Shown here: in pieces, positions 17,699-51,309 of the stretch | How positions within the stretch are numbered: position 1 is the stretch's first letter | Layout: the number at the start of each line of letters is the position of its first letter | DNA from: Candidatus Omnitrophota bacterium | GTDB lineage: Bacteria > Omnitrophota > Gorgyraeia > Zapsychrales > Zapsychraceae | Reading direction: 5' to 3' | Length of the DNA: 64,000 nt | Assembly (NCBI GenBank): GCA_021108075.1 | Contig: JAIORP010000012.1 | Span: 6,539-70,538, forward strand | Translations under genes and position numbers: made by a program | Notes under the pieces: generated by a model | Seen by the model: only the letters and a program-made list of their open reading frames with translations | Told to the model about the DNA's origin: nothing | Database searches by the model: none

Positions 17699-20600
17699 TT
17701 GATTATTTTTATGCCGTCAAAATCTATGTCTTACAAATTGTTTTGCCTCTTTTTGATCCTCGCGCTCGGTGTTCATATGATCATGCCTGCCACGGGTTTT
17801 GCGCAAGGGATGATATCTTTGCCCATACCAGGTGAAATGGTGAGGGTCAGCCCGGTCTTTGATCCCATGATGATCCGGGGCGTGATGGTCAGTCCGGATA
17901 ACCCCTTTGAACTGAAATTTTTAATGGATAGCGGTGACGCGATCCTGGCTGATGAAGCCCTTAAGAAGGAGGGGCAGGGATTAATCAAGTATTTTTTGGC
18001 TACATTAACGACTCCGGATGAGGATCTGTGGGTTAATCTTTCTCCTTATGAAAACGACCGTATCATGGCCAATGAATTCGGTCAGACCGAAATGGGCCGG
18101 GATATGTTGGCCCAGGATTACTTGTTGAAGCAATTGACCGCCTCTTTAATGTATCCGGAAGAAGAACTGGGTAGACGGTTTTGGGAACGTGTTTACGAAG
18201 AAGCGTACAAACGCTTCCGCACGACGAATATTTTAGTCAACACGTTTAATAAGGTATGGATCATTCCTGAGTACGCGGATGTGTATGAAAAAGACGGTGT
18301 GGCGTATATTCTTGACTGCCGGCTAAAGGTTATGTTGGAGGAAGATTATATCGCCTCCCAGCAAGTGTTGGGTAATGCTGCTTGGGCCCGTAAGCTTGGC
18401 GTGGCTGACTTGACGGAAGAAGATAAAGCGAATTTGTTCGCCTCACAGAGCGATCCTTTAAAAGCCATCCTTAAGGAAATCATTGTTCCTGAAATTGAAC
18501 GGGAAGTCAATGAAGGACGAAATTTTGGACAGCTTCGTCAGATATTCTACTCGATGATTTTAGCGACATGGTACAAAGAGCGCCTGAAAAATTCCATCCT
18601 CAATCATGTCTACTCGAATCAAAAAAAAATAAACGGCATTGATGTCGAGGACAAAGACATTAAAGAAAAGATCTACCAACAGTATATCACCGCCTTTAAA
18701 CGTGGTGTTTACAATTACATTAAAGAGCAGTATGATCCGCAAAAAGGCGAGGTCATCCCACGCAAATATTTTTCCGGCGGGGCGACGTGGATCAATATCA
18801 AGGATGTGACCCGTTACCACAAAGAACTTCCATCAAATTTCGATAAGGTTCCCCGGTCCGATTTTGCCATGCTGACCAGGTTAGATGATTCCGCCCAAGC
18901 GGCGCCGCGCGCGATGGACGCGGCGATGCTCGACACCTCAGGCCGTCAAAGAGCCCGCCAGGATGCTTTTGAAAAGCTTGTCCGTGACCGTTTTGAGTTT
19001 GATAACGTGATCGCTTCTTTTAATGATTTGCTCAAGGGAGCTAATCTTAAAGTTTATCCATCCCGCGCGGATCTCTATCAGTATGAAGGCGGTCTGGATA
19101 CCGGAAGTTACTTCTTTACAAAATTAGTCGGGTATGGCCTCGACGCTCAGAGGAAATACATCGCGTTAAGGCGCTTGATTGAGCAGGATCAGTTTTTAGA
19201 TTTTATAAGTGGAGAGGCAACCTTTTCTCGTGGTGACCTATTGCGGATATTGAAAAATAAAGAATTGGACGATGAACTGGACCTGATATTAAAAGATCAA
19301 GACAGTTATGATGATTTTATTTCGATGTTAGCAGACCGGGACTATATGGATATTCTTTTCAGTCACACAGGGACCGCTGAGATTTATATTGAAAATAACA
19401 AGTTGGTTGCTCAATTACCCAATACTCAGCTCGTCGATGTACTGGGATTTATTTCTTTTTCCCCTGAGGATCGAAATATTGAGTTCCTCCTGTCCGAGAA
19501 TTCCATGGCCCAGTTCCTTTTTGATATCCGCCGACAAGTGCTGCCATTGTTAGTTGAGGCCGCGCAGGAATATGGATGGGGATTCCGCTCTCCGCTTGAA
19601 GTTGAGCTTTCGGATGCTGTCAGGCCAATCGCAAATGTGATTTCAAGAGTCCGGGAGCAGGAATTAGAACGGTTTTTAGGCCAGGATACGTTTAGCCGCC
19701 GGGTCGAAGACTTAGAACATGGGGCTTTTCAAAATTTAAAGGATTTGTTCCAGGAAAGGAAGCAGCAGGGGCAGCCGGTAATGATTGGCATCAGCGGTTT
19801 ACCCGGAGGCGGGAAAACGCAGAAAGATAAACGTGTCGCGGCAGCGATAGCAGAAGTTGTTAAGGAAGATATTGTGATCATCGACGAAGACCGGTTTATA
19901 AAACAGCGGGCGCCCGTGGACACCCGGGGGGAAGGATTGGGAGGGAAATTTGACTGGTCTGCGCATGATCAGAGCCTTAAGGACTTGCGGGAAGGCCGCT
20001 CCGTAATGGCACAGATGTATGATCCTGTGACGGGGGGGAATCCGATGTTGGCCCTCACGGAGGCCGGAAACATCATTATTTTGAATGGAAACAGGACGAT
20101 AACCATTGTCGCTGATAAAGACCAGAATCTTTTTGACTTGATCGAAGAAGAGCATCAACCCGGTCAACCAGCGCAAGTGATCAGGCATCATTTTAAGACG
20201 GAGAACTTGACGCAGAGCGGTCCGTTTACATCAGGTTCAACGGTCTATCAATTTAAAATAGAGAACGGAAAGTTAATGGTCGGATTTCAGGGGTATGATG
20301 TCTTACGATTGGAAGAACAGAACGCGCCCCGCAACATCTTGGCCATGACACAATATGAAATTGATTTAACACGTGAAGACCTCGTCGCGCGGATCCAACT
20401 GTCGGGAGAACATAAACATCTCGAAGCGCAAAGTGTTTTTCCCCTGAACGTCGTGTCTGACCGGATGGATGTGAACGCTGTGAGTCGTGCTATTCTCTTA
20501 AAGGAAGTCATCCCGACGGACAAACCGATTGTGTTTTCAGGAACGCATGCCTATACCCAGTATAAAGATAATAAGTTCGTGTCGAATGATCAGATCTTTG

Positions 20601-23600
20601 ATGTGAGTCTGTATTATCAGACGCCATGGATTGTGCGCTGGACGCGTGATTGGTTAAGGAGCCAAGAACGAGGCAAGCAAAGAGGGGAACAGCTCGGGAA
20701 TGCGGCACGTTTTTATGACCGTTTGAATGTGGAGGAAACGATTTCCTTACAGACAAAACCTCAGGTCGTTCGCGATATTAAAATTATGGGTGTCACGGAA
20801 GCTATCGCGTATTTGTTGCACGCGTCGCCTGAAAAATTATTTGTGCATGAAGCGTATCTTCGGCAATTAGGTCTGGACCTGAATACAATTCGTGAGTGGC
20901 AACGGGAATATCTTGTTAAGCCGGAGCTGCTGAGTCTTTTTAATGAATTTAGAGAGAAAACGGAATTTGTACGGACATATGACGGCCATGATGAGTATTC
21001 GATCGGAGATTTCATTTTCAACGTGAAGAGCGGACAGAGCGCGTTATCTCAGGCTGAGATTCTTCATCATGACCGGCTTCAGGACCGGTTAAGGGGGATT
21101 TGGGGCGGCAGCACGATTATTCATTTGGATCAGCTGGGTGATGTTGTTGTCGACGGGGATAAAAAAAGGTTCGGTTATGTTTCCGTCTGGAATAAAGGCG
21201 AGCTGGTCGGAGAACGTTTGAAGGCGCTGGCTCAAAGAACGGATCCAGACAGTTTGACTGAAGCGCAAATTCTGATCGATCAATTTGTAGAGCAAGAGCA
21301 GCAACTGCACCTGAGAGGGGTTGTCGATAAAAATCCTGATATTATGACGAATCGCCGGATTTTGCCGATGGATAATCAGATGAAAGTGATGGTCGCGAGT
21401 CCGGCCGCCCAGTTGACGATTTGGGAGAATGCGTTATCTGTGTACCAGTCCCGATATGCCTCACGCCGGGCGGATGAGAATATATATTTATCTCCTCAGA
21501 TTTTACAAAGCATTCCAGAGGCGTTCAGGCCCTATTATGAACAAAAAGTAACGGAACAATTGTTGCCTTCTGCCGGACAGACAAAAGAAGACGCTTTTCA
21601 GCAATTTTACAATAATGTCTTTGAACTCGCCTTACATGTCGCGGATCGATCTCCCTTCGGAGACCTGATAAAATTTGGTTTAGTCCGTAATGAACAGGCG
21701 CATTTGATTGTTGAGAATTTGAAGAATACAGACGTGGAACATCCGGCCCTATTTGAACGCCGACTGAATCATATCCGGTTTATTTTTACACGGGCCCTCA
21801 TCGATCAGACCCGTCGTGATTATTTTGATTACGTCAATACGTCAAAAGGAAATCCGCTGCTTGCCTGGACCATGCTTTTTGTTGATTCATACCCGGAAGT
21901 TTATAATAAATTTAATTTGCTCATTAAAATTTTTCTGAACGAATTGATGGAAAATGCGGGATTGTTACAGTCCTTCCCCTCGAATGAAGAACTCTGGCAG
22001 TACATTTCAGCACGGTATCAAGAGACTTATTCTGTTAGAGGGTTAGCGACTCCCGGGTTAAGTGCATATGTGCGGCGTTCTTTTGAATATTTTATCGATA
22101 TCGCCCGTCAAATGCCGTTAAGCTGGGACTTGATACAAGAACGGCCAGCGGTCACCGGTGATTTGGCCTCAGATCCATACGAGTTTTCCCTAACATCTTA
22201 TGCCAATGAAACGCAAGGGTATCCCGATATGATGGGGGTACAAGTTTTAGATGAGCGTGAGTTTGGTCGTCTCAGGACCTATATGGATCAACCGCGTAAA
22301 GCGGTCTTGACAGACCTCGACGGCACAGCAACACTCGTTGATCAGAAATCAGGTCGAGTTAGTGAAAGCGTAAAAGAATCGCATAAGGCCAATATTCAAC
22401 GCTTTGCTGAGCTGGTCACTGATGGCGTCTTAGTTGTTCCGACCACAAACCGCCGGGAGTCAAAAGCGGTTGCTTACGCTGAAGAAATTGATCAGGTCAT
22501 CCAGCAGACTCCCGGGTATCGGTATCGTCAAGATTCTAGGACGGGCGGATCGTTTTTATTGTTTTGGGCCTCTGGGATGAATGGCATGGATGTTGGTCAG
22601 AATAAATTATTAGATGATTTTCAGTTAAAATTTAATCCGCAACAACAGGAAGAGGTCGTTCAATCCTTGCTGAAGGATCAGGTTATCGCGTCACGCGCCA
22701 CAAGACATGTTGAGATCCTTGATGGAAAAATTAATGTTTATTATTCAGGTGGTACGCGCGTAAGCCGGGCAGGTTTTTTAGATGCTATCCGGGGTGTTTT
22801 AGATGGTTTGAATACCCTGGTCCGTCAAGACGGTTTTGCCCCAAAGGGCGAATATTCTTTGCTGCGGGTTGTCGACGGGGGAGAAAATGTCATCTCGATA
22901 CTGCCGCAGGACGCTAATAAGGCCCGGCCAAAGAATTATATTCAAAATCGTTATGCTATATCTGAAGATGAAACATTGATCCTTGTTGACCAACCGCAAC
23001 AAGGACGGGCGGACAATGACCTTGTCCGTTTGTCAGGTATTCATGTTGGGGATGATATCGATGATTTACCAGAAGGAGTTATCAGCACCAAGAAAGCAAT
23101 CGGCCTGGTTGGTCCGCAGGCGGTTCAATGGCTGCTAACAAACACAGAATTTTCTTCTCCTTTTATTGAAGAAGAAACCTTCCGCTCGATACTGGCAAAG
23201 AATATCCCACCGACACGGAATGTCGTCATTGAAAAGGTCGGAAACTTGCGTTTGGTGAGAACTCCCTGGCGCAAAAGACGTGTTAATCCGACAACCCCTT
23301 TTAGCGCGGTTGTTCTTCCCTTTGATCCTGGCCTTTTTAATTTTCGGAACGAAAACATTGATGAAAGCGATATCTTTTTCGAAGGCATTATCGAAGGGCA
23401 GGAAACAACGTTATTGTTGCAAAAGTCTCCCTTTGCCCCCGATCATTTTCTTGTAATTCCTGAGCGTGATCTTGAGCGTCCGCAGGTATTGCAGCCAAAG
23501 GACATCGCTTTTGGTGCCCGGTTTGTCCGTTCGCAAGCTTTGCCGCATTTGCGTTTGGGGTTTACAAGTTTAAAAGGCGGCGCATCTATTAATCAGCTGC

Positions 23601-26600
23601 ATATGCAGGCCTTCACGACGATCGAAGACCTTTCCGCGTTAGAATTGGTTCCTAAAAAAGAGGAGTACCGTATTCAAGGCGTCAGTGTGAATGTATTGGA
23701 AACAATGGAGGACTATCATTATAACGGCCTGATGTTCCATTCAGAGAACATTGAAGACCTTTCTGTTGTTGTTTATCGATACATCGAAATATTGAACCGG
23801 TTTGATATCCCCTATACCGTTAATTGGACCCAGGTCGGGGTGTATGTTATGCCGGTAAGAAGTTCCGTCGGGATACAAGGACGATTGGGTTTTTATGAAC
23901 ATATGGGTTTTGTTATTTCTAAAGATGTCAGCGAAAGCCGAGAGCAGGCTGTCGCAAAGTATGCTGATGAAATGCAATCAGCATCTCTGAACGATGCGGA
24001 CTTTATCCTAACGCATCAGTTTACCTTCTCGACCGAAGAGATTGAAGCTGCATCATTGAGGGAATTATCTTCCCGGTTAAATGAAGGAACGGACCGTCCG
24101 TCTGACGCGGCGATGTTGGGTGGCAGGGATGACAGGAATGAAGAGCGGCTTAATCTGGAGGCGTTAGAAAAGATAAATCTGCAAGCCTACGGGCCCGGGG
24201 GGCGCCATGGACTGATTGACCTGGAAAAATCTTACAATGATTCGCGTGTTTTTATGAGTTATATTTTCGGGTTAGCCGGGGCCGGGATGGTTGGTCTTCC
24301 GACAGCACTAATGACTCAGGACATCTATTCGTCCGCGACGGGGGCGCTCGTTGGTGCCGGGGTCGCGATCGCGACATATGTAAAATTATTTCCACAATCA
24401 AAATATAAAAATATTGAAGAGGGTATCCAGGCGTTGGAGAAAGCGCGTACTCAAGAGGAGATCCAGTCTGCGCGAGGTTTATTTATCGATGGAATGGCAG
24501 GCACAGATTCAGTATTGCTTCATCGTTTGGGCTTAACAGGTTTGGAAACATCGGAAAAATTATTTGCTAAAATGATGGGCGCAGAACAAACAGAGCTTGT
24601 TCTTCCTTCTGATATCCAACCCATCCAGGCTGATCAGATCAGGCAATTAGAAATAAATATGGGACTGGCTGGACTGGCTGATTTGTTAAAGATTGTTGTT
24701 CATGAAAAATTCGCGTACTTTTCCGTTGTTCCATCAATTCCGACCGATGAGCAACGGAAGTCATTAAGGGCCGCGATATCAGACCCTGATGTGATCAGGC
24801 GGCTTTTTAAAAACGTATCTGATGATAGCAATACGATAGAACGCCTGCAAGAAAGGGTATGGCACGGGATCTTTGATCTGTTGTACCGGCAGGATGGAGA
24901 CTCTATATTCTCTCCGGAGTATTTAGAGCTTTACAGGGATAATGAGATTTTTATGGAACAGGGGGTTTTGCGGGAGCTTGCCAATGATCAAGAACGCTCT
25001 CAGGAAGATTATCTGGTTGACGCGGTGAAATCAGAAATTAAAGCGGACAAACAGTATAAAATTCTTGTTTTCGCGACTGGCTCGGGAGCACTGATTAATA
25101 ATTTGTTGCAACAAATTTCAAATATTGGTGAGATCGTTGAATATGACCGTAGCGCTACTTCCAATGAAACGGCTGATCGCAAACGCAGAGAATTGTTGCC
25201 GCCCGATTTATATAATAAAGTTCGGCAGATTACAGCTGATGTTAGAGATTTTAAATCTGAGCTGAATGGCGAAGAGTTTGATTTTATTATTTCCACGGCA
25301 TCATTGCGCCTGATGAGTTCCGAAGCCCGGGAAAGCATATTAGAATTTTTGCAGGAAAAAGCAGGGTTGCGCAAGGGGGGATCGTTTATCTATATGGATA
25401 CCAGGGAGCATTCAGAAATCATGGGGCAGGCGGTCGACCAGATGCGGACGTCCGGTTTTAATGTGAGCGTTGATGATAAGTTTTTCGCGGGCCACAGAGA
25501 CGCGATGTTTTATATTTTTGTGCATCAATACCGAAAGAATCAAATCTTTAGAAATTTTATTGATCAGTTAATGAGCTTAAAGCGTAAAGATAATTTATAC
25601 AATTTTCTTTATGAGATGGCCGGTCACAGGAGAATCAAATTCGAATTATTAAAGGCGACGCAAACATCTGAGAGTTTGAGGAAAAAGAATTTTGAATCAA
25701 TGGTGAATCGATTTTCTGACGCCACAAAACAGATGTTTGGTTCTGTGTTTGAAGATGCACGGGTGACAGTCCAAAAGGGACCCAGTTCACGAATCACAAT
25801 CCGTTTATTTGAAAAGGATCCAGATGTTGATTATTTAGACAGCTATGATATCAGCGTCGATACCGCGCTGGGCCAGGTGTATGCGGTCACTCTTTATGAT
25901 GGGCGGAGTATCGGGAAAAACACTTTAATTGTTGGACGCGCGGTCTTGCAGGATCCAACAGTGGATAGAGTCATTCTGACGCAGCATGTGTTGTCTTCAA
26001 AATATGGATATGATGAAGCGTTAAAGGAATTGAAGTCCGTGTTATCTGAAATATTGCCTGAGGGGATGTTAAATTTTGATGAATCGGAAACATTGGATCG
26101 TTTAGCGACACATGCCGCGGGGTTAACAAAGAGTGATATGTCGGAGGCTATTAACGCCATTCCGGTCGATGCGGAAAATTACGAAGATATGATCATTGAA
26201 GCGTTTCGTTCATATTCTCGAACAGTCTATCCTTCACAAGAGCGTTTGCCTTTCCGGGGAGCGGCAAAGATTTTTCGAGAGAATGCCTCGATGGCGATGC
26301 GTTTGGCCGGCGAAGAGGGTTATTCATCAATTAGCGGACTCGTTTCTTTACCTGATGGTTTTCAAAATTTAGCGTTATATCAGAGGCTTGGTTTTAATCC
26401 GATAATCCCGGAAGGAAGAAGCGATTATTTTGGACAGGTGCAAGCAGCGTTAACAGATAAGAGCGCGGGCGCGACCTTAAAGGAAAAGGCCTGGTATTTG
26501 TCGCAACGTCTGGAGCAATTGATATTACTCGTTCAAAAAGATATTCCTGATCAAGACGCGGCGATGTTGGGCAAAATCAATCGTTATCAACTTAAAAATG

Positions 26601-29600
26601 GGGCAACGGTTTTAGGCCCGTTATCTGAGGACGCGTTTAATCAGATGGCAGGCGAAGACGCGTTTTTTCTTGTCAGAGATAAGGAAAAAGGAGTCTATGC
26701 TCAAAAGACAACCCCCGAGGAGCAGGGTTATAGTGTTGTTGCAACGGAATTTAGTGAGATCGAAACAATTTTTAAGGATGCCGGTGTGGATATGGTCACT
26801 CATATTTTGTCGACGTTATGGGAGAATCCAGATCGTGAAGTCGTCGTGTTAGCTGATGGAGTTGGCCGGGGAGTGGAATTGCAGGGACTTGTTGAAAAAT
26901 TAAAGAAAGAGGTAGAGGCTTTCGGCCTTGATATATCAAAAATCAAAATTTATGGTCTTTCAGACATGTATTTTCAGGACTGGCAGGACGCAGACCCGAT
27001 GATCAATTTTATTCTTGATGATCGAGAGAACTTGCCGGACTATTTCTCGAGAAGGCAAATTGACGTGATGATGAGTTATAAGGGCATTTCTCATATCGGT
27101 CAGCAAGCGGAATATATCAATCATATGAGAATGATGAAGCCGCACTTTAAATACAACGCCTTAATTGTCCATGATTTTTATTTTGGGAATTTAGACGCCG
27201 TTGAATCGATGCTGGAGCGGAATGGTTTTTCGGTTAAGAGGGAACGGTTGCCGGGTATGACGGAGTTATTTGTTCTGCGACCGGTCGATTTTAATAAAGA
27301 TGCGCCTGCCGATGTATCAGAAAACACGAATAGGGAGGTTAAAACGGTGCCGTATCAACAGGCGGAGTTTTTTGAACTCACGCCTGATTACAAACTAGCA
27401 GGAACATACACCACCCGAAAGGGAGAAGAATTCAATATTTATTTTAAAGATAATGATTTTGTGTTGATGAACGTTGAAGGGCAGTTTATCGGTAAGGTTG
27501 TATTTGATTTTACGGAAGAGGGTGTCGCGGAAATTGATTTAGTGCGCGTTTCAGAGTATGTTCAGGGGGAAGGATATCTGTATGATTTGATTGATGCTAT
27601 ATCTTTTTATTTAGGACAATTGGGAGCCGAAAGTATTGTCGTTACGGAAATTTATAATCCATTTTTGTCCTATGTTTTGACAAAAGAATATGGATTTCAT
27701 CCTGAGATTAAAGAGGGTGATGAACGCAAACAATTGATTATTGGTTCACGAGAGCCAGGTGAGAGACTGCCCGTTTATCTTTCCGGAGAAGGCGCTAAGA
27801 AAGTTTTCTCGCCGGGCTCAGGGTATGATGTTCTATTAGAAAAGTTAGATATCCTTGATACCCCTCCCGATGATGGCGTTGTCAGCTATGTGTTTGTTGA
27901 TTATGTTAAGGACGTTAATAACGCGCGATACCAACAGCAAATAAGTTCTGTCAAAAACAGGATGGCGATTGATGGAGAAATTCTTGAGCAAAGGAAGAAC
28001 GAATATCAAACAAAATTTCAGCGACGAGGAACAGACGACATGTCAGAAGATCACCGCGATCAAGCGATGTTGATAACCTATACGGAAAAAGAGTGGCAGC
28101 AAATAGACCAGACGTATCAAATTTTGCAGCAGTTGGCGCAGGTGGTTGATACTCAGATGGAACAGAGTGGTATGGTTGAAATTTTTGATGTCTTCCGTCA
28201 ATGGCTCAATCAAGGACCGCGGGATGCTTTGGCCCAAATCGAATTGATTGAGGACCCTCAGGAACAACAGGAAGCTTACCAGAAATTAAGCGCTGCCCTA
28301 TCACGTTTTGTTCATGAATTTGAGACAACATATGATCATGTATCGAAAAGATGGGGGCAGGAAATCGCGGGCGTTAACGGCCGGTCCTTTGTTCAATTTG
28401 ATACGGATGGGAAGGTCCTTTCTTATCCATGGTTTGATTTGACGTATGACCTGAATGACAAGTTGGATAAACTGGCCACCTTTATTCTTGGCTGGGGGAA
28501 GCTTTTGGTTACGGATGGCGCTGTTGCCAAAGATAATTTTTTGCTTTTGGTCAACAAATTGGAATCTACGTACCGCATATGGGATGGTTACCGGCAATAT
28601 TTGCGCCATGTTGCGGATCCGCTGTCAATTCAAGATAGTCAGATCGCGGATAATCAAGAAGAAAGAACACAGCCGCGTTTGGGTTATGATGAGTTTTTAT
28701 TGCCGTACCGCAATGCGTTATTAGCGCGCGATGCGGACCAGGATACTTTGGAGCAACCGCGTGAAGAATATGTTGCCCTGGTGGATGCGCAGGGGAATTT
28801 TTTGCGGGCTGTTCCACGTTCTGAGCGTAAAAATAAGGCGCCGGATGAATTTACTCAGGGTGCTGTTATTATTGTTGTCGATGAGGATGGGAATGTTTTG
28901 ATGCAGCAGCGATCAGAAGGGAAGATGGAAGGGCACGAAACCTTTGGCCCCATGGATTGGACCATCGGGGGGCATCGTTCTGATGAGGATGCCGACATTG
29001 AAGCCGCTGCTTTGCGCGAAGGCAATGAAGAGGCCGGGGGCATTATCAATTTTAAGAAATCAAATCTGGTGCAGATCGATCAGCGTCCTGTTAATCCGGA
29101 CACGGATGGCCGCTGGGTGCGCTCAACGTTCATTTATGTGGTCAGTGCAACAGAGAAGAACAATATTCAGGAACAGATGATCGAGGGCTGGCAAGGGAAT
29201 GACGAAGTTGACGGCTGGGAGTGGTGGGGGCAAGATGATTTTACAACAGAGGCAAAAACGAGCCAGAAATGGTCAACCGTGATTGATCTGTTAAGAGACA
29301 TTCCTGATTTTCCGGCGATGGTAGAAACGGCTGTTGTGGGTGTTACGCAGCGTCGCCGAGATAGCACGGTTCGAGACGGGGCAGCACTGACAACCTATAC
29401 GGAAAAAGAGTGGCAGCAAATCGACCGGACCTACCAGACGCTGCAGGAGATCGCCTTAAGCGTTCAGGGGAAATTGCAGGAAACAGGTATGACCACTCTC
29501 TTTCTACGCATCGACCAGTTCCTGGTCCAGGAGGACCCACGGCTGATGTTTGAACAATTACAAGACTTACCGAGCAAAGAGGCTCAAGATCGGGTTTATG

Positions 29601-30313
29601 CGGTAATAAACACGGCCATGCAGGGCTATGCCCTGAATATCAAAACCATGTATCAGGAAAACATATCAGAGATTGACGCTCAACTCGCCCGGATCAAAGG
29701 CCGATCCTTTGTTCAATTTAGCGCGGAGGGGGCATTGGAAGCATACTCTGCAGAGGAGTTGATCTATGACATCAAAGATAAGATAGGCAAAATAACGACT
29801 AATATTTTTTCCTGGTGGGATATGCTGTCATCAGACGGTGATCTCCCAAGGGAACAATTTTTGTTTATGCTGGATCAGTTTGAATATGCGAGTGAGGCAT
29901 TCCATCAGTACCGTTCTTATCTGGGACACATTCTTCAACCAATTCGTATTCTGGATGAAGATATCGTTGACAACCAAGAAGAACAAAGCCACCCACGGCA
30001 AAGCTATGATCAATTTTTACTGCCCTACCGTGATGCGTTGATCGCGCGTGATACCGCAGTCCAGGACGCTGCCATGCTGGGCAGAGAGCAAAGTGACAAT
30101 GTCGGTGGTATCGATCTTAATCCCGCCAATTTGAATCTGCGCATCAAGCGTGACGGGGATGGTCAGCCGTTGCCGTTTGATGCCCAACCGATCGATAGTA
30201 TTAACATTGAAGGACTGGTCCCTGTGATCATTAATGTTACACCGATCATAAACCTGCCGCTATTGCTTGGAGCGGCTGAGCCGGGTGAAGTCGATCAGGT
30301 CCTATCCCTTTAA
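17699..30313 (+). CDS. Giant (4204 aa) putatively exported modular multi-enzyme protein with DxAML-delimited cargo modules
   Basis: Uninterrupted ORF; start may be ATG17711 or later. Signal-peptide-like N-terminus (LFCLFLILALGVHMIMPATGFA/QG). N- and C-terminal domains shared with 47473..51309. Internal P-loop, HAD, HIT-like, SAM-MTase, GNAT and Nudix motifs. Confidence 0.9.
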   Translation: MIIFMPSKSMSYKLFCLFLILALGVHMIMPATGFAQGMISLPIPGEMVRVSPVFDPMMIRGVMVSPDNPFELKFLMDSGDAILADEALKKEGQGLIKYFLATLTTPDEDLWVNLSPYENDRIMANEFGQTEMGRDMLAQDYLLKQLTASLMYPEEELGRRFWERVYEEAYKRFRTTNILVNTFNKVWIIPEYADVYEKDGVAYILDCRLKVMLEEDYIASQQVLGNAAWARKLGVADLTEEDKANLFASQSDPLKAILKEIIVPEIEREVNEGRNFGQLRQIFYSMILATWYKERLKNSILNHVYSNQKKINGIDVEDKDIKEKIYQQYITAFKRGVYNYIKEQYDPQKGEVIPRKYFSGGATWINIKDVTRYHKELPSNFDKVPRSDFAMLTRLDDSAQAAPRAMDAAMLDTSGRQRARQDAFEKLVRDRFEFDNVIASFNDLLKGANLKVYPSRADLYQYEGGLDTGSYFFTKLVGYGLDAQRKYIALRRLIEQDQFLDFISGEATFSRGDLLRILKNKELDDELDLILKDQDSYDDFISMLADRDYMDILFSHTGTAEIYIENNKLVAQLPNTQLVDVLGFISFSPEDRNIEFLLSENSMAQFLFDIRRQVLPLLVEAAQEYGWGFRSPLEVELSDAVRPIANVISRVREQELERFLGQDTFSRRVEDLEHGAFQNLKDLFQERKQQGQPVMIGISGLPGGGKTQKDKRVAAAIAEVVKEDIVIIDEDRFIKQRAPVDTRGEGLGGKFDWSAHDQSLKDLREGRSVMAQMYDPVTGGNPMLALTEAGNIIILNGNRTITIVADKDQNLFDLIEEEHQPGQPAQVIRHHFKTENLTQSGPFTSGSTVYQFKIENGKLMVGFQGYDVLRLEEQNAPRNILAMTQYEIDLTREDLVARIQLSGEHKHLEAQSVFPLNVVSDRMDVNAVSRAILLKEVIPTDKPIVFSGTHAYTQYKDNKFVSNDQIFDVSLYYQTPWIVRWTRDWLRSQERGKQRGEQLGNAARFYDRLNVEETISLQTKPQVVRDIKIMGVTEAIAYLLHASPEKLFVHEAYLRQLGLDLNTIREWQREYLVKPELLSLFNEFREKTEFVRTYDGHDEYSIGDFIFNVKSGQSALSQAEILHHDRLQDRLRGIWGGSTIIHLDQLGDVVVDGDKKRFGYVSVWNKGELVGERLKALAQRTDPDSLTEAQILIDQFVEQEQQLHLRGVVDKNPDIMTNRRILPMDNQMKVMVASPAAQLTIWENALSVYQSRYASRRADENIYLSPQILQSIPEAFRPYYEQKVTEQLLPSAGQTKEDAFQQFYNNVFELALHVADRSPFGDLIKFGLVRNEQAHLIVENLKNTDVEHPALFERRLNHIRFIFTRALIDQTRRDYFDYVNTSKGNPLLAWTMLFVDSYPEVYNKFNLLIKIFLNELMENAGLLQSFPSNEELWQYISARYQETYSVRGLATPGLSAYVRRSFEYFIDIARQMPLSWDLIQERPAVTGDLASDPYEFSLTSYANETQGYPDMMGVQVLDEREFGRLRTYMDQPRKAVLTDLDGTATLVDQKSGRVSESVKESHKANIQRFAELVTDGVLVVPTTNRRESKAVAYAEEIDQVIQQTPGYRYRQDSRTGGSFLLFWASGMNGMDVGQNKLLDDFQLKFNPQQQEEVVQSLLKDQVIASRATRHVEILDGKINVYYSGGTRVSRAGFLDAIRGVLDGLNTLVRQDGFAPKGEYSLLRVVDGGENVISILPQDANKARPKNYIQNRYAISEDETLILVDQPQQGRADNDLVRLSGIHVGDDIDDLPEGVISTKKAIGLVGPQAVQWLLTNTEFSSPFIEEETFRSILAKNIPPTRNVVIEKVGNLRLVRTPWRKRRVNPTTPFSAVVLPFDPGLFNFRNENIDESDIFFEGIIEGQETTLLLQKSPFAPDHFLVIPERDLERPQVLQPKDIAFGARFVRSQALPHLRLGFTSLKGGASINQLHMQAFTTIEDLSALELVPKKEEYRIQGVSVNVLETMEDYHYNGLMFHSENIEDLSVVVYRYIEILNRFDIPYTVNWTQVGVYVMPVRSSVGIQGRLGFYEHMGFVISKDVSESREQAVAKYADEMQSASLNDADFILTHQFTFSTEEIEAASLRELSSRLNEGTDRPSDAAMLGGRDDRNEERLNLEALEKINLQAYGPGGRHGLIDLEKSYNDSRVFMSYIFGLAGAGMVGLPTALMTQDIYSSATGALVGAGVAIATYVKLFPQSKYKNIEEGIQALEKARTQEEIQSARGLFIDGMAGTDSVLLHRLGLTGLETSEKLFAKMMGAEQTELVLPSDIQPIQADQIRQLEINMGLAGLADLLKIVVHEKFAYFSVVPSIPTDEQRKSLRAAISDPDVIRRLFKNVSDDSNTIERLQERVWHGIFDLLYRQDGDSIFSPEYLELYRDNEIFMEQGVLRELANDQERSQEDYLVDAVKSEIKADKQYKILVFATGSGALINNLLQQISNIGEIVEYDRSATSNETADRKRRELLPPDLYNKVRQITADVRDFKSELNGEEFDFIISTASLRLMSSEARESILEFLQEKAGLRKGGSFIYMDTREHSEIMGQAVDQMRTSGFNVSVDDKFFAGHRDAMFYIFVHQYRKNQIFRNFIDQLMSLKRKDNLYNFLYEMAGHRRIKFELLKATQTSESLRKKNFESMVNRFSDATKQMFGSVFEDARVTVQKGPSSRITIRLFEKDPDVDYLDSYDISVDTALGQVYAVTLYDGRSIGKNTLIVGRAVLQDPTVDRVILTQHVLSSKYGYDEALKELKSVLSEILPEGMLNFDESETLDRLATHAAGLTKSDMSEAINAIPVDAENYEDMIIEAFRSYSRTVYPSQERLPFRGAAKIFRENASMAMRLAGEEGYSSISGLVSLPDGFQNLALYQRLGFNPIIPEGRSDYFGQVQAALTDKSAGATLKEKAWYLSQRLEQLILLVQKDIPDQDAAMLGKINRYQLKNGATVLGPLSEDAFNQMAGEDAFFLVRDKEKGVYAQKTTPEEQGYSVVATEFSEIETIFKDAGVDMVTHILSTLWENPDREVVVLADGVGRGVELQGLVEKLKKEVEAFGLDISKIKIYGLSDMYFQDWQDADPMINFILDDRENLPDYFSRRQIDVMMSYKGISHIGQQAEYINHMRMMKPHFKYNALIVHDFYFGNLDAVESMLERNGFSVKRERLPGMTELFVLRPVDFNKDAPADVSENTNREVKTVPYQQAEFFELTPDYKLAGTYTTRKGEEFNIYFKDNDFVLMNVEGQFIGKVVFDFTEEGVAEIDLVRVSEYVQGEGYLYDLIDAISFYLGQLGAESIVVTEIYNPFLSYVLTKEYGFHPEIKEGDERKQLIIGSREPGERLPVYLSGEGAKKVFSPGSGYDVLLEKLDILDTPPDDGVVSYVFVDYVKDVNNARYQQQISSVKNRMAIDGEILEQRKNEYQTKFQRRGTDDMSEDHRDQAMLITYTEKEWQQIDQTYQILQQLAQVVDTQMEQSGMVEIFDVFRQWLNQGPRDALAQIELIEDPQEQQEAYQKLSAALSRFVHEFETTYDHVSKRWGQEIAGVNGRSFVQFDTDGKVLSYPWFDLTYDLNDKLDKLATFILGWGKLLVTDGAVAKDNFLLLVNKLESTYRIWDGYRQYLRHVADPLSIQDSQIADNQEERTQPRLGYDEFLLPYRNALLARDADQDTLEQPREEYVALVDAQGNFLRAVPRSERKNKAPDEFTQGAVIIVVDEDGNVLMQQRSEGKMEGHETFGPMDWTIGGHRSDEDADIEAAALREGNEEAGGIINFKKSNLVQIDQRPVNPDTDGRWVRSTFIYVVSATEKNNIQEQMIEGWQGNDEVDGWEWWGQDDFTTEAKTSQKWSTVIDLLRDIPDFPAMVETAVVGVTQRRRDSTVRDGAALTTYTEKEWQQIDRTYQTLQEIALSVQGKLQETGMTTLFLRIDQFLVQEDPRLMFEQLQDLPSKEAQDRVYAVINTAMQGYALNIKTMYQENISEIDAQLARIKGRSFVQFSAEGALEAYSAEELIYDIKDKIGKITTNIFSWWDMLSSDGDLPREQFLFMLDQFEYASEAFHQYRSYLGHILQPIRILDEDIVDNQEEQSHPRQSYDQFLLPYRDALIARDTAVQDAAMLGREQSDNVGGIDLNPANLNLRIKRDGDGQPLPFDAQPIDSINIEGLVPVIINVTPIINLPLLLGAAEPGEVDQVLSL

Positions 30314-42684: not shown

Positions 42685-42685
42685 A

Positions 42686-44274: not shown

Positions 44275-44350
44275 TAGTGATACCAAATCCATATGGCAGG
44301 ATTTGACAATTTGTTCTAACGCTATAAAATGATTAAACATTTGCTTTTTT

Positions 44351-45937: not shown

Positions 45938-46230
45938 AAGAAGAGCGGGGTTCGGGCATGCCCGTTCCCTACAGGATTATTGATTATTATGCCATGTAGG
46001 TTTGGCATAATAATATATTGATCTAAATCGATATTGTTGAAATGTGCGGGTATTTCTAACCAGGTTTTTTTAATAATTTCTCCTGATTCGTTTAATATCA
46101 TTTTGTCATTACTGATTGTTCCAAATTTTTCAATTCTATTATGCGCACAAATTGTTACAAAATAATATCCCGGCATGCGATAATCATATTCTTTTAATCT
46201 GTTTTGTTTTCGTTTTGGTGATTTGTCCAT
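45901..46230 (-). pseudogene. Truncated REP-associated tyrosine transposase (RAYT/Y1)
   Basis: RLKEYDYRMPGYYFVTIC N-terminus. HUH motif damaged (MPNLHGII vs MPNHxHGI). Runs into a GTAG REP; catalytic Tyr region missing. Confidence 0.8.
45946..45972 (-). repeat. GTAG-family REP palindrome
   Basis: Minus strand GTAGGGAACGGGCATGCCCGAACCCCG. Confidence 0.7.
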
Positions 46231-46243
46231 TTTATTATTTTGA

Positions 46244-46317
46244 TTATAACGAGAAAATCAGCCGCCTTTGGAGCCGTGAAGCGGCGGAAAAGGTCGGCTG
46301 TATTGCTTTGATATATG
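46244..46317 (-). mobile_element. Integron attC site
   Basis: Minus strand: R'' CATATATC, L'' AAT(A)CAG, CCG(A)CC ... GGCGG, L' CTGATT, R' GTTATAA. Two extrahelical bases; directly follows the stop of 46318..46923. Confidence 0.7.
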
Positions 46318-46923
46318 TTAATTTTCTATTTCACAAGCTCTAATTACCCCTTTAAGAATTATTTTGCGTAAATCATTAGTTGAGATTTTGGGGGAGACAG
46401 ATTGCTTGATTTTCCACTGGAAAATAATATTATCGTCATCGGGATTGTCATTAAAAAATATGATATCAAAATAAACTCCACGATGTACTATATCACAGCG
46501 TACCTTATATAGTAATGCTACAACTTCTTTCAGGGATAAATATGCGTCCTTTTGTAATTTTTCAGAGGGATATTTAATAAAAGATTTTTCTAACTTATCT
46601 TTTTCTTCCTCATTGAGAATATTTTCGAAAAATTTGTATACATACTTTTTGCTATCTCTTTCACCTGTATAATTAAATTTTATTTTTGCCGCCGCCTCAG
46701 CGATAATTATAAAAAATAAAACATCAAATGCTGGACGGCCTTGTTGATGTATTTTGTCTGCTAAATAGAGCATTCTTGCGCATTGGTGAACGATTATTCT
46801 TGAATTTCGATTTCCTCTTGCTTTCTTTACAAAGATTTTTGCATCTTTTTCAGAATTTAATACAGGTAAAAAATATTCCCACGGATCAATTTCTGCTATG
46901 TGTTTTTCTGTTTTAATTCTCAT
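46318..46923 (-). CDS. Integron cassette gene, HEPN-like (R-x4-H) putative RNase
   Basis: AT-rich. LYKVRCDIVHRG motif plus upstream IIIAE. Start codon lies inside a GTTATATG core site. Confidence 0.6.
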   Translation of the reverse strand: MRIKTEKHIAEIDPWEYFLPVLNSEKDAKIFVKKARGNRNSRIIVHQCARMLYLADKIHQQGRPAFDVLFFIIIAEAAAKIKFNYTGERDSKKYVYKFFENILNEEEKDKLEKSFIKYPSEKLQKDAYLSLKEVVALLYKVRCDIVHRGVYFDIIFFNDNPDDDNIIFQWKIKQSVSPKISTNDLRKIILKGVIRACEIEN

Positions 46924-47472
46924 ATAACAATTATTATACGACAGTCCGATTTACTTGCTTAACAGGACATCGCAGGTTGAGTTTGATTAAAATCATTAAG
47001 AATATATGCTTTTTATAACTAAAATAGCTGATAAATGGACAGTCGTTGAAGCTGTGCGTATTTGTATTCCGGACATTATTTCTGATATAAATCAATCCTT
47101 AAAAAACAAATTCCCTATCGACATACAAACATTCTAGTCTTCCCCTTAATTATTGTCAATGACTTGAATCGACTTAAAATGGACTAAAAGGTCAGTTTTT
47201 TGGACGCAAATCCATATCCGTTCATACGCGCGTATCGCGAAATTTATCACAAACTAAAATTCATCCGGTTTTGTGAGGGGGGCAATATTTTGATATGAAA
47301 GGCGCCTTTTAGGCCGGGGGAGGGGTGTTAAACGTCCCCATTTTGATTTTTTTCATCGGGAAGGTGAGCTGACAATAGGATCTTGTTAATAAATACAAAA
47401 TATGCTATTGTTCATATATAGAATATTTATACTAATATTTATTTCCAATTTCCAAAAAACAGGAGCAGACGT

Positions 47473-50400
47473 ATGAACGCGTTATTTTTCTCGAACCTTT
47501 CCACATTTTCTCGAAAAATTTTATCTGTTACTTTATGTCTTTTTCTCATTCTGATATCCACCCCGGTCCCGCTTGTCAGGGCCCAAACGCCATTGAATCT
47601 GCCCTTGCCAGGGGCGGCGGTCCCTTTAACCTCCGCGTATGAACCCGCGTTATTAAGGGGATTGACCATTTATCCGGATAATCCTTTGCAGTTTGAATTT
47701 TTGTTGGATGCGGGCGACACTTTTTTGCGAGGTCAAGCATTGCGAAAGCAAGGTGAAAAGTTAATCAAATATTTTTTGGCCGCCTTAACCATTCCTGAAG
47801 AAGAGATGTGGGTGAATCTTTCTCCCTATGAAGATAATCTTATCATTCCGGATAGTTTTGGTGACACGACCATGGGGAGCGACCTTTTAGCCCAGGATTA
47901 TTTGCTCAAGCAATTAACCGCTTCTTTAATGACCCCTGAAGATGAGATCGGCCGGATTTTTTGGGACCGTATTTATGAAAAAGTTTACAATATGTACAAG
48001 ACAACGGACATTCCATTGAACACGTTTAATAAAATTTGGATTGTGCCGGAATCAGCCACAGTCGTGGAGAAGGGTAATGATGTTTACCTTATGAATAGCC
48101 GGTTAAGCGTGATGCTGGAAGAAGATTATGTCGCCTTAAAACAAAATCTTGGCGACGAGAAATTCGGCACCGAGCAAATGGAAATGGATGAAGCTCAGGT
48201 AATCAGTCAGGTCGCGACAGAATTGGTGCGTGAGATTATTATCCCTGAAATTGAAAGAGAGGTCAATGAAGGCCAAACTTTCGCTCAGTTGCGGCAAATT
48301 TATCATGCCATGGTTTTATCCACCTGGTATAAGCAGAATTTAAAAGAATCATTCCTGGGGCAGGTCTATATCGATCAATCCAAGACAAAAGGTGTGGATA
48401 CCTGGGATAAACAGGTCACGAATAAGATTTATGATCAGTACATTCAAGCCTTTAAATCAGGAGTCCAAAATATCATCCGTGATGAGTATAATCAGCATGA
48501 TGGAGTTGTTGTGCCGCGGAAATATTTTTCCGGTGGTTTTACCACGCAACGTTTTGATGGCCGTGATTTGGCGATGTTGACCACCCGGATCAATTTGGAG
48601 TATTTCCAAAATGTTGACGCGAAGTCAAGAGCGGAAGTTCGGGATTGGCTGATGGAAGCGGATAATAGTGAGTTGTTTCAGTTTTCATTGTCTTTGATCG
48701 AATACACGGAAAATAATGAACTGCACATGGACGATGTTGTTAACGCCGGTTTTTTTGATAATGTGATTGATGAACTTCACTCACAAAGGATAAACTTACT
48801 AAAGGAGGCTCAGATCGCGCCTTTTATGCTGGAAATTCCTTTTGATCAGCGGATACAAGAAGACGGAATATCTCACCCTACGACCAAAGATGACCTGATT
48901 ATTATCGGGGAAAGATTTCGCAAGGGAATTGATCGTATTTCTAAAATCGTTCACCGGGATAAACTGACAGGTCTGTATAATTTAGATGGATACATGTTGC
49001 GGTTGCAAGAGATGGTCGATTGGATCAGACGTCAGGGTGATAAGGATGATCAGCTGCAGTATGTCTTTTTTGATATCGATCATTTTAAGGCGGTAAATGA
49101 TACTTTCGGTCACGATAATGGGGATATTGTCTTGCAGGAATTCGCCGAGATTTTAAGTTCAAACGTGCGCGCTTCAACCACAGTCGCCCGGATCGGCGGG
49201 GAAGAGTTCATCGTTATGATGTTTGATAAATCATCTGAAGATGCTGTTCTCGCCATGAAAAGAATGAAAGGCGTTTTGCGGGATCATTTTCAAACGCAGG
49301 TCAGCAAGACGGACAAGACATTTTTGTACGATAAAAAACAACTTGTTATCCAGGCGAAGAAAAGGATCGGTAAACTCCTTGAAGCAAAGACCGCCGGGCA
49401 GTCGGTTGGTTTTGATATAACAAAGTTACGGGACGCGATCGCGCACCAGGTTAAGGTCCAGGCAACCAATGACGCCGAAAGGCGATTCGCTCAAGCCCTC
49501 CAGTCGGAAGCTCTTTTTAACGCGGATGAAACCGGAGTTAATCCTGAAATTGAAAAGGCGCTTGACCTATTAGCGGGCTGGATGATCACGTTCAGCGCGG
49601 GGATAACGATTTTTGATTTGCCCCAGTATGAAAAGCTGCTTCAACGTGATGGCATCAAATCCGGTGACGCTTTGACGCAAGTGGCGACATTGCTTTATCG
49701 TCAGGGTCAAGCCGCTGTTGAGGTGGCTAAAAACAGTGGACGGGATGAAATAACGGTTTTTGATCCAGAGACAATGGAAATCGATGAAGACAGGGATCTG
49801 GGCAGTTATGCCAGTCCGGCCCCCTCTTATGAAGCGCATGACCTGGACAAAATGACGAGACGACGATTATTGAAAGAAGTCAACGGGCTCCGTAAGAGGT
49901 TTGTATCCTTGATAAATAAATCCGAGACCGATCCGTTAACAGGAATGAAAAACCGCAATGGCTTATATCAAAAGTATATTGAACGGGTGCATTACGGCGC
50001 GCGTTACCAGCCTGATACGAGTATGGCGTTAGCCTATACGGATATTGATTTCTTTAAGACCATTAATGATAGTTTTGGCCATGAAATAGGGGATGATGTT
50101 TTAAAGGCTTTAGCCGCTGGGTTTAAAGAAAATTTAAGAACGATTGATACCGTGGCCCGTTTCGGCGGCGAAGAAGTCATTATTTTTTTGCCGGCCATGA
50201 AGCGCATGGATGAGCAACGGACGATTTTAAAAGTTAGAGATATTGTCAGGAGAACAACAAAATACATTCGGGAAAATGTTTCTTTATTCGGGAACAAGAC
50301 TGAGGTGATTAAAAAAATTAGAGCGCGCATCGGGGCCCTCGACGAAAGTCAAAAAGAAGGGCTTGGCGTGGACGCTGATCTGGCGAATCTACGTAACGGT

Positions 50401-51309
50401 CTGGTTCATCAGTTAACCGTGCAGGAAGTTTTTACGGATGAAAATGAAGCAGAAAAGAAAAGATACCTTAACGATACGGGTATTGCCACCCTCTATGAAT
50501 TAGCCGATTTGCTTAATGGTTGGGACGTTACTTTAAGCGTCGGTGTTGAGATCGATGATTTTACGGAAGAGGGCAAGATCCAGTCTTATCTGAAAAAAGG
50601 AGATTTAGACACGGGGTTAACCTTGATGGTTGCCAAAGCGGAAATCGCCGCCGGTTATGTCAAAGAGACGGGCCGTAACCGCGCGGCTTATCACAGTGAG
50701 GTCCCTCGAGTGTCAAGACCCGCGCCAAATATCTTAGCGATCATCGAAAAGGAACAGGACCGTGACGGGTTCAAGGCTTATTTTGAAAATAAAGGTTATG
50801 TTGTGACAGTTGTTGGCGACTTAGAATCGGCTGAAGGTGAGTTAGCGGAACAATTAGCCAGGTATAGTTTTGTTTTAACGGAAAAACAATCCGCGGTTTC
50901 TGCCGACGATGATTCTTACCTTCCTGGCAATGAGGTGATTGATCGTTTAAGATCGATATTTCCCGGGATAAAGTCTTTGATTTTAGGCAGCCCGGAGGAA
51001 ATCTATGATGTTGATCATATTGAAGAGATGATCACAGGCGCGATTGGTGAGGGAAAAACAGATCAAGCCATGTTGACGGCTCGTTTGGATAACACCCCGG
51101 TCGGTGGTATCGATCTTGACCCGGCTCTGCTTGATTTGAAAATTAAACGCGATGGAGAGGGCATTGCCTTACCACTACTGCAACAACCGCCCGAAGCGCT
51201 GCAAATTGAGGGCTTTATCCCTGTGATCATGAACGTGACACCCGTGCAGACGCTGCCGATTTTTCTTGGAAACCTGGCGACTGAAGGGGATACGTTAGCC
51301 CAATTATAG
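47473..51309 (+). CDS. Putatively exported modular protein (paralogue of the giant protein) with tandem GGDEF domains and a degenerate REC-like domain
   Basis: Signal peptide (ILSVTLCLFLILISTPVPLVRA/Q), shared N-domain, DLAML/DQAML boundaries, DIDHFKAVNDTFGH..RIGGEEF, DIDFFKTINDSFGH..RFGGEEV, shared C-domain VGGIDLDP..IKRDG. Confidence 0.9.
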   Translation: MNALFFSNLSTFSRKILSVTLCLFLILISTPVPLVRAQTPLNLPLPGAAVPLTSAYEPALLRGLTIYPDNPLQFEFLLDAGDTFLRGQALRKQGEKLIKYFLAALTIPEEEMWVNLSPYEDNLIIPDSFGDTTMGSDLLAQDYLLKQLTASLMTPEDEIGRIFWDRIYEKVYNMYKTTDIPLNTFNKIWIVPESATVVEKGNDVYLMNSRLSVMLEEDYVALKQNLGDEKFGTEQMEMDEAQVISQVATELVREIIIPEIEREVNEGQTFAQLRQIYHAMVLSTWYKQNLKESFLGQVYIDQSKTKGVDTWDKQVTNKIYDQYIQAFKSGVQNIIRDEYNQHDGVVVPRKYFSGGFTTQRFDGRDLAMLTTRINLEYFQNVDAKSRAEVRDWLMEADNSELFQFSLSLIEYTENNELHMDDVVNAGFFDNVIDELHSQRINLLKEAQIAPFMLEIPFDQRIQEDGISHPTTKDDLIIIGERFRKGIDRISKIVHRDKLTGLYNLDGYMLRLQEMVDWIRRQGDKDDQLQYVFFDIDHFKAVNDTFGHDNGDIVLQEFAEILSSNVRASTTVARIGGEEFIVMMFDKSSEDAVLAMKRMKGVLRDHFQTQVSKTDKTFLYDKKQLVIQAKKRIGKLLEAKTAGQSVGFDITKLRDAIAHQVKVQATNDAERRFAQALQSEALFNADETGVNPEIEKALDLLAGWMITFSAGITIFDLPQYEKLLQRDGIKSGDALTQVATLLYRQGQAAVEVAKNSGRDEITVFDPETMEIDEDRDLGSYASPAPSYEAHDLDKMTRRRLLKEVNGLRKRFVSLINKSETDPLTGMKNRNGLYQKYIERVHYGARYQPDTSMALAYTDIDFFKTINDSFGHEIGDDVLKALAAGFKENLRTIDTVARFGGEEVIIFLPAMKRMDEQRTILKVRDIVRRTTKYIRENVSLFGNKTEVIKKIRARIGALDESQKEGLGVDADLANLRNGLVHQLTVQEVFTDENEAEKKRYLNDTGIATLYELADLLNGWDVTLSVGVEIDDFTEEGKIQSYLKKGDLDTGLTLMVAKAEIAAGYVKETGRNRAAYHSEVPRVSRPAPNILAIIEKEQDRDGFKAYFENKGYVVTVVGDLESAEGELAEQLARYSFVLTEKQSAVSADDDSYLPGNEVIDRLRSIFPGIKSLILGSPEEIYDVDHIEEMITGAIGEGKTDQAMLTARLDNTPVGGIDLDPALLDLKIKRDGEGIALPLLQQPPEALQIEGFIPVIMNVTPVQTLPIFLGNLATEGDTLAQL

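Follow-up and report, generated by a model that had tools for sequence, protein, structure and literature searches.

The window analysed here is a stretch of 64,000 nucleotides on contig JAIORP010000012.1 of an uncultured, probably predatory Candidatus Omnitrophota bacterium (assembly GCA_021108075.1; 4.06 Mb in 219 contigs), and it contains two genes, gene 1 and gene 2, whose products begin and end alike and carry different enzyme domains as cargo in between. They belong to a family in which the two ends probably constitute one split carrier domain rather than two modules, and this split carrier, together with the toxin-type domains on homologues from actinomycetes, suggests a new route of protein delivery. 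The genome of the window is denoted G000; other G numbers stand for sampled genomes, L numbers for loci, and C numbers for contigs or paralogues of G000.

Gene 1 (17699..30313, 4204 aa, with a TTG start and an alternative ATG start at 17711) and gene 2 (47473..51309, 1278 aa) are both open, as the first-pass annotation of the window had read them, and lie on the forward (+) strand. At the start of each product a basic n-region leads into a hydrophobic h-region and then an A-x-A|Q site, a pattern that by a simple rule predicts Sec-type signal peptides at 17711..17803 (cleavage GFA|Q) and 47473..47583 (cleavage VRA|Q). The signal is followed by the N part of the carrier domain, at 17804..18781 in gene 1, where it ends in RKYFSGG and matches no known family or fold, and at 47584..48537 in gene 2. 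The proteins end in the carrier tail (GGIDL...), located at 30104..30313 and 51103..51309, the former having the first strand of the actinomycete domain described below as its best match. All motifs that had been quoted for the two shared ends are present, the N domains being 53% and the C-terminal blocks 42% identical. In line with the claim of unrelated middles, a match between the cargo of gene 1 and that of gene 2 is absent from the BLAST table (E ≤ 1e-8, near-identical pairs removed).

The cargo of gene 1 consists of five modules bounded by a short junction motif, D-x-A-M-L. Directly after the N part stand DFAML and DAAML (18860..18931), followed by a P-loop kinase-like domain with GLPGGGKT (19757..20089; below the cut-off, with a Pfam E of 0.0015 and 3e-4 for an NCBIfam uridine kinase), a region with the HAD-type motif DLDGT and the HIT-like motif QLHMQ (22313..23608; a motif-level reading only), DAAML (24104..24118), a class I S-adenosylmethionine (SAM) methyltransferase identified by Pfam (25046..25447), and DAAML again (26555..26569), seven residues after which a module common with paralogue C14 begins. 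A GNAT-like domain follows (27440..27703; below the cut-off, Pfam E 0.036). Next, DQAML (28058..28072) opens the first copy of an internally duplicated module, and the variant DGAAL (29375..29389) the second; these two diverged copies of about 200 aa (28058-30079, starting TYTEKEWQQID) flank a NUDIX hydrolase with a complete Nudix box (28856..29248; Pfam), and a final DAAML (30065..30079) stands ahead of the tail. Gene 2 carries a single GGDEF-GGDEF-(receiver-like) module between DLAML (48565..48579) and DQAML (51061..51075). Its first GGDEF domain (48949..49287) reads GGEEF, with the metal-binding motif intact and the RxxD inhibitory site changed to RxxT, and the second (49885..50259) reads GGEEV with RxxD present; the module would keep the two domains together, which a dimeric cyclase would require. 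The earlier assignment of enzyme cargo stands for the methyltransferase, the NUDIX hydrolase and the two GGDEF domains, all above Pfam cut-offs, and falls short of them for the GNAT and the P-loop kinase. Catalytic motifs are intact in the GGDEF, NUDIX, P-loop and HAD modules of the window.

A profile search of the genome with the N domain, which had been proposed as a check, returned 19 open reading frames (ORFs) of 857-5392 aa with mostly unrelated middles, each of which has both ends, the conserved tail forming the terminus in 19 of 19. The N domains of the paralogues are 45-57% identical to that of gene 1, and BLAST (E ≤ 1e-8) found only four cargo matches between paralogues. The general build is a Sec-type signal, an N domain of about 320 aa, variable and nearly cysteine-free enzyme cargo, and a tail of about 60 aa. 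The N profile matches 8,282 clusters at 50% identity, with named relatives that bear the label Ca. Omnitrophota, among them Ca. Zapsychrus and Ca. Aceula, and the tail occurs once, at the C-terminus, in 110 of the best 150 library matches, the other 40 being possibly truncated; fixed ends around variable cargo are therefore a property of the family. Of 401 genomes sampled from the phylum, 116 have the domain, as do 50 of 54 in its own order; a wider profile raises these figures to 135 of 401 and 60 of 66. One genome of 2.6 Mb has 75 profile matches, pieces included. In the genome of the window the family occupies 118 kb, and it is therefore a major investment whatever its role.

By Pfam, the cargo of the paralogues comprises methyltransferases, NUDIX, GGDEF, phosphoglycerate kinase (PGK, matched over its full length, E 2e-82), UDP-glucose pyrophosphorylase, protein kinases, histidine-kinase ATPase, HEAT and helix-turn-helix domains. 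In 31 proteins of five other genomes it includes malate synthase, pyruvate phosphate dikinase (PPDK), phosphomutases, sucrose synthase and receivers. Cargo without a Pfam match was seen in 16 of these 31 and in 7 of 17 proteins of the window genome. Two pieces of the cassette stand by themselves, neither adjoining an intact family gene: a 61-codon frame (L020, C130:2729-2911) that joins a VNLSPYE segment straight to the tail end, which reads as the relic of an internal deletion in a family gene, and an orphan junction motif with tail (L019, C61:7146-7484), which has neither N part nor cargo.

The junction motif and the near absence of cysteine are features beyond those observed by the first-pass annotation. 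The 39,252 aa of the paralogues contain D-x-A-M 57 times and the 865,642 aa of other ORFs 67 times, a 19-fold enrichment. The motif is positioned shortly after the N part (no more than about 70 residues away in most paralogues here), between modules, and a little ahead of the tail. In 269 proteins of the family it avoids shared modules, with 38 of 908 copies inside them versus 118 expected, and a motif is found within 40 residues of 76 of 206 module starts, where random placement gave 37 on average and 51 at most. A role as a DNA recombination site was considered and rejected: the motif is enriched in frame 0 only, it is written with varying synonymous codons and with serine codons of both families, and its codon skews match those of the codon-pair background. 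It is a peptide-level signal. Cleavage of the protein at this signal is on the whole likely.

The form of the signal differs between genomes. In a sample of 100 genes from 21 other genomes, picked among the best-scoring matches, three dialects were distinguished: DxAM, SSP and DGG. Motif counts in cargo are 47 SSP and 3 DxAM in G358, 19 and 0 in G143, 4 and 42 in G216, and 1 and 40 in G341, with 61 DGG in G236; G276, G388 and G349 have no clear dialect. The dialect is clear in 84 of 119 proteins, and among the 81 of these that have a genome-mate it is predicted by genome-mates in 77, versus 52 by the nearest N domain of another genome. A DxAML protein of the window genome pairs as sister with an SSP protein of G358 (support 0.98). 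By these counts, the dialect tracks the genome and not the lineage of the N domain. In our reading the dialects can be aligned at one position on a small residue (D-x-A|ML, D-G-G|x, S-S-S|PV), with DxSML and SSAL as intermediates.

The same dialect recurs in the giant proteins encoded by these genomes, for which information on cleavage points is absent according to West-Roberts et al. (10.1101/2023.11.21.568195). Sharing between family and giant is strong in 5 of 8 informative genomes: SSP[ILVA] occurs 170 times versus 4.2 expected in the giant of G358, where DxAM[LM] has no copy, DGG 101 times versus 17.7 in G236 (4 of them in a neighbouring ORF), DxAM[LM] 7 times versus 0.2 in the window genome's own giant with a C39 peptidase domain, and SSP 87 times versus 6.5 in G143 (sub-dialect SSPA included), with 21 versus 2.9 in G205. 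The giant pieces of G341 and G251 are short and uninformative. Taken together, these patterns point to a factor acting in trans on the motif, of which we infer a protease to be the simplest candidate. The N domain itself is disfavoured as a self-cleaving protease, as Ser, Cys and His are missing from its set of invariant polar residues (T, D, K, N, R and K), the dialect does not track its lineage, and the motif also occurs in giants that lack the domain. Two other pieces of giant ORFs in the window genome (C10:2-79594, 26,531 aa; C7:3-68228, 22,742 aa) are without the DxAML dialect and slightly enriched in words of the RAPP/RGPP type; they perhaps form a second class with a junction code of its own.

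A profile of divergent N domains led to 16 proteins (E 1e-32 to 1e-54) with a different build, six of which bear the names Streptomyces or Micromonospora, and a search with one of the 16 gave 1,051 relatives, mostly from actinomycetes, among 7,999 candidates scored, with names including Streptomyces, Nocardia, Micromonospora, Actinoplanes, Kutzneria and Mycobacterium. The Omnitrophota N domain and the actinomycete domain align over 245 columns with an hhalign probability of 99.9% (E 1e-31). In the actinomycete proteins the order is signal, variable domain, GG[IV]DFSTLELRY, shared domain, YxxGGVDF, and a membrane or sortase anchor, a circularly permuted form of the carrier; in both builds the C-terminus of the cargo is joined to the GGID strand. 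The actinomycete-type homologues at L321, L333 and L344 lie on contigs of 50-61% G+C, so the permuted form probably extends beyond Actinomycetota.

The variable regions of this form include toxin-type domains. The 58 regions fall into 22 clusters; the deaminase motif HxE..PC is present in 18 regions and a motif of restriction-endonuclease type, G-x-x-F-E..D..ExK, in 17, the latter without a Pfam match, and Pfam recognises the XOO_2897 deaminase in 9 of 32 actinomycete proteins scanned out of 37 submitted. The XOO_2897 clade consists of toxin domains (Iyer et al. 2011, PMC3239186), and deaminase and nuclease toxin domains need access to the cell interior because they act on nucleic acids (PMC3239186). 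Of 15 loci in the nuclease cluster, 10 have a DUF6278-like gene as neighbour, against none of 41 other loci; the profile used for this count was seeded from two of the nuclease-cluster loci, and 3 of the 10 are seeds or near-copies of seeds. This gene is a candidate immunity gene. At L297:2-3824 three DUF6278-like genes stand in tandem upstream of a nuclease-cluster homologue, an arrangement like a polyimmunity array. The actinomycete form looks like an inverted polymorphic toxin system, and homologues with such domains give independent support to a delivery role of the carrier.

The relation of the two builds also bears on the tail. A profile of the actinomycete first strand has the Omnitrophota tail as its best match in 203 of 233 scored proteins (280 had a tail), for example GGIDFSTLELRY versus GGIDFRVMDIKY. 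The shortest tails consist of the GGID strand alone. In families f30 and f20 the protein stops about 10 residues past GGID, and in family f21 (L045-L047, L073-L082) a GGIDF strand is followed by a different helical tail of about 100 aa with a Cys-Cys/Cys pair and an LEEER motif. AlphaFold was used to model P0091, a naturally short member, from 36 paired sequences, and the model was read by the predicted local distance difference test (pLDDT): its alpha/beta core is confident (83-96 over most blocks of residues 41-280), its cargo is mostly below 50, and its tail starts at 88. Closure of the carrier by the tail is probable. The N part holds, by eye, a second copy of a piece of the strand (F-x-P-x-x-L-[RK]), so that strand exchange is possible. 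Covariation between N part and tail reached z values of 7.5, 7.2 and 6.4 against maxima of 4.7, 3.7 and 6.5 in three shuffles (185 sequences), and is suggestive only, because shuffling also strips relatedness.

The carrier corresponds to no catalogued family. That the N domain might be a known enzyme domain was named beforehand as a ground for rejection, and Pfam, Protein Data Bank (PDB) and fold searches matched none: eight N domains gave no useful Pfam match at E ≤ 10, sequence searches of the PDB with the N profile, the C profile and two cargo stretches gave no useful match, NCBIfam had no match to the carrier, and ESM Atlas returned only unnamed Omnitrophota clusters or nothing. The protease or translocator fold for which a search had been proposed did not appear either, as Foldseek found nothing in the PDB at E ≤ 0.001, and the best VIA-align result for a 564-residue model of mean pLDDT 62.7 was Z 3.4 (109 residues aligned, root-mean-square deviation (rmsd) 5.8). 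The viral folds of BFVD likewise gave no match at E ≤ 0.001; a weak lead there, from model m101829a65068 to the Tupanvirus J-domain protein A0A6N1NXY0 (E 0.014, probability 0.82, rmsd 13.4), may hint at eukaryotic or giant-virus relatives of the carrier. Empty fold searches do not establish a new fold. For DUF1598 (PF07643), another lead, the family loci of 5 genomes gave no match at E ≤ 10, with remote kinship possible for a model of 84 positions.

Export at the inner membrane is indicated by the signals and by the composition of the cargo. The Sec signal fits 17 of 19 paralogues by the simple rule, mostly with A-x-A|Q, which makes Sec export of the family likely; the paralogues have 0-3 hydrophobic stretches each over their 857-5392 aa, and a stop-transfer helix after the N part is absent in most. 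The cargo of the 19 paralogues contains 2 cysteines in about 31,000 residues, versus 1.3% in other ORFs; the cargo of both window proteins has none, and library matches have 0.065%. Other long ORFs below 0.1% cysteine number 20 of 354 in this genome and mostly have signal-like starts (by eye). The cargo, with cysteine near zero, probably crosses the inner membrane together with the carrier.

A mechanism that would join these observations has four steps. In the first, which is well supported, Sec would export the whole chain. In the second, moderately supported, the C-terminal GGID strand would fold back on the N part, so that the carrier closes and the cargo forms a loop. In the third, the carrier would move the cargo over the outer membrane and present or pass it to an attached host or prey, probably by the Tad/secretin machinery encoded next to the giant gene; a Tad/secretin cluster does adjoin the C39 giant of this genome (by eye), and Tad complexes and a predatory life have been proposed for Omnitrophota (PMC10066038). 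In the fourth, a once-per-genome factor, most likely a protease, would read the motif (DxAML here), cut after the small residue and release individual enzymes, among them the tandem diguanylate cyclase, kinases, methyltransferases and sugar-phosphate enzymes, which would then rewire the signalling and carbon metabolism of the other cell; the same factor would also work on the giant protein of the genome. That the carrier presents or delivers its cargo to another cell, with a genome-encoded protease freeing the modules there or en route, has in our estimate about an even chance of being right, and delivery into another cell, taken as a claim of its own, is likewise evenly poised. The proposal of the first-pass annotation that the chassis exports or delivers cargo into another cell gains from the probable crossing of the inner membrane and from the toxin-bearing homologues, while entry into that cell is a step that we infer.

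Several observations weigh against this mechanism. Nuclease or deaminase families were not found in the cargo of 50 Omnitrophota proteins scanned, and no immunity-like gene was seen by eye among the neighbours of the 19 paralogues, which are mostly housekeeping genes, some paralogues standing at contig ends. The pairwise match of tail and first strand is weak (hhalign probability 12%, E 0.0025; best hidden Markov model E 0.012), and the last actinomycete strand starts with GGVDF as well. Sharing of the dialect is weak in three of the eight informative genomes (8 versus 3.5 expected in G216, 5 versus 1.2 in G292, 4 versus 1.7 in G395), and two other giant fragments of the window genome have 0 and 1 copies. 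No candidate for the cognate protease that tracks the dialect was found. In G143, one closed contig with SSP in both family and giant, no C39 domain is detectable; the C39 of the giant would therefore not be the sole reader, and as sole processor it is disfavoured. The giants are reported to be anchored in the inner membrane (10.64898/2026.06.07.730766), so that processing in or on the producer fits equally well.

The alternative that survives best, in itself unlikely, takes the motif as a repeated grip for a secretion machine or folding chaperone on a protein that stays uncut, and is compatible with either destination of the cargo. It can appeal to the lack of a protease candidate tracking the dialect, to three dialects that diverge beyond most protease specificities, and to SSP, which could be a plain linker. 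It does not explain well why the dialects, with their intermediates, can be aligned on one small residue, or why motifs separate the carrier from the cargo at both ends.

Display at the surface or in the periplasm is a second alternative, and an improbable one on balance. The enzymes would be held on the side of the producer and use ATP, SAM, sugars and nucleotides leaking from punctured prey, and the motif would be a cleavage site for a periplasmic protease or a binding site for a chaperone. Loss of cysteine indicates passage into an oxidising compartment and not entry into another cell, the cargo is rich in central carbon enzymes (PGK, PPDK, phosphoglucomutase/phosphomannomutase, phosphoglycerate mutase, malate synthase, sucrose synthase), the actinomycete form terminates in a membrane or sortase anchor, and extracellular sugar processing has been proposed for the giants (West-Roberts et al., 10.1101/2023.11.21.568195). 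However, it is hard to see what diguanylate cyclases, receivers, histidine-kinase ATPases, helix-turn-helix domains and protein kinases would do outside a cytoplasm, and the homologous domain bears nucleic-acid-targeting domains elsewhere.

Decidedly improbable is a polyprotein of the producer, whose cargo would be severed at the first motif, ahead of export or in its course, and work in the producer's cytoplasm while the carrier alone is exported. The closeness of that motif to the N part would suit it, as would the many transmembrane segments of giants with the same motif (Nielsen and Lui, 10.64898/2026.06.07.730766) and the fact that immunity genes are neither required nor seen; but cytoplasmic enzymes would have no reason for a near-total loss of cysteine, the tail would be left apart from its partner, and the stop-transfer helix is missing in most paralogues. 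A decoy or adhesin, with cargo as dead filler under diversifying selection, would fit the many cargo regions without a Pfam match and the up to 75 profile matches in one genome, yet it is very hard to reconcile with the intact catalytic motifs of the window and the full-length PGK.

Both genes of the window stand singly amid hydrogenase and housekeeping genes; the window encodes Cas1 and Cas4, a Rex-like regulator and hydrogenase clusters (45-1867 and 6565-41506), the latter being a three-subunit FeFe cluster and a NiFe HoxFUYH cluster with hyp genes, with gene 1 between the two. Directly downstream of gene 2 (about 51464-51576) lies a palindromic intergenic repeat of about 110 bp, REP/MITE-like, which adjoins several paralogues; it is not specific to the family because it occurs at 383 places in the genome.

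Polymorphic toxins (PMC3482391, PMC3239186) resemble the family in their secretion signal, conserved trafficking domain and exchangeable cargo, and resemble the actinomycete homologues in the XOO_2897 deaminase, the restriction-endonuclease-type domains and the candidate immunity neighbour. 'Polytoxins' and immunity-free, host-directed deaminases have also been described (Iyer et al. 2011, PMC3239186). In contrast to polymorphic toxins, the cargo is central in Omnitrophota, where the C-terminus was the conserved tail in 19 of 19 paralogues, or N-terminal in actinomycetes, and not C-terminal; the carrier lies outside the catalogued families. Of the polymorphic-toxin logic seen by the first-pass annotation, fixed ends and variable cargo hold, while the Omnitrophota cargo is metabolic and signalling and has no immunity-like neighbours. 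As this cargo is not of classical toxin type and has no immunity-like gene beside it, the term suits the actinomycete form better.

MARTX toxins are exported by type I secretion. They too have conserved ends around a variable string of effectors, and theirs are freed by proteolysis between modules (PMC4453568, PMC3153235). Unlike them, the family has a Sec signal and, by Pfam, NCBIfam and the sequence of its ends, no RTX or glycine-rich repeats; the window proteins have no built-in cysteine protease domain (no match, and cargo free of cysteine), the targets would presumably be prokaryotes, and the motif would be read in trans in a genome-specific way. The earlier statement that no RTX, RHS, CPD or Hint motif is visible was borne out, none of these families being matched. 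The Omnitrophota giants or 'Archaeovorins' (10.1101/2023.11.21.568195; 10.64898/2026.06.07.730766) share the phylum, low cysteine, the kinds of enzyme cargo (methyltransferase, NUDIX, kinase, sugar enzymes) and, as found here, the junction motif common within a genome. The family differs in size (860-9,000 aa against more than 10,000, and 857-5392 aa in its own genome against a criterion of more than 30,000), has few or no transmembrane helices, lacks an N-terminal C39 or S8 peptidase or SecA DEAD domain, and is present as scattered single genes in 1 to more than 60 copies per genome.

Cargo of the type IX secretion system of Bacteroidota combines a Sec signal, a variable passenger and a short conserved C-terminal element. 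The family has these three elements as well, but also a large conserved N part and homologues in monoderm actinomycetes, and Pfam and NCBIfam found no type IX C-terminal sorting domain in the window proteins. In its proposed working the family resembles MARTX toxins and polytoxins, yet it falls outside both of these groups, as well as outside type IX cargo and Archaeovorins, and would be a variant of polymorphic effector systems whose carrier domain is uncatalogued. No published description of the carrier, the motif or the actinomycete form was found in a search that left subscription papers and preprint supplements outside, and the accessible text of PMC12419801, 10.64898/2026.09.08.750141, West-Roberts et al. 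and Nielsen and Lui does not describe the carrier, nor do the last two set out cleavage points.

A tentative joint reading, doubtful as a whole, would see an undescribed delivery route common to actinomycetes and Omnitrophota, used by the former for single nucleic-acid toxins and by the latter for split polyproteins, in up to about 60 copies per genome, that move metabolic and signalling modules into hosts; one junction code (DxAML, SSP or DGG) with a single co-evolving reader would also map the cuts of giants of 14,000-75,000 residues. Omnitrophota are among the commonest ultra-small bacteria, and their mode of action on hosts is at stake. Whether and where the giants are cut is a stated open question (10.1101/2023.11.21.568195), for which the dialect supplies exact, genome-specific positions to inspect in proteomes, and public proteomes of a cultured relative exist (PMC12583861). 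The actinomycete homologues, finally, bring the question of the carrier into culturable soil Streptomyces and Micromonospora.

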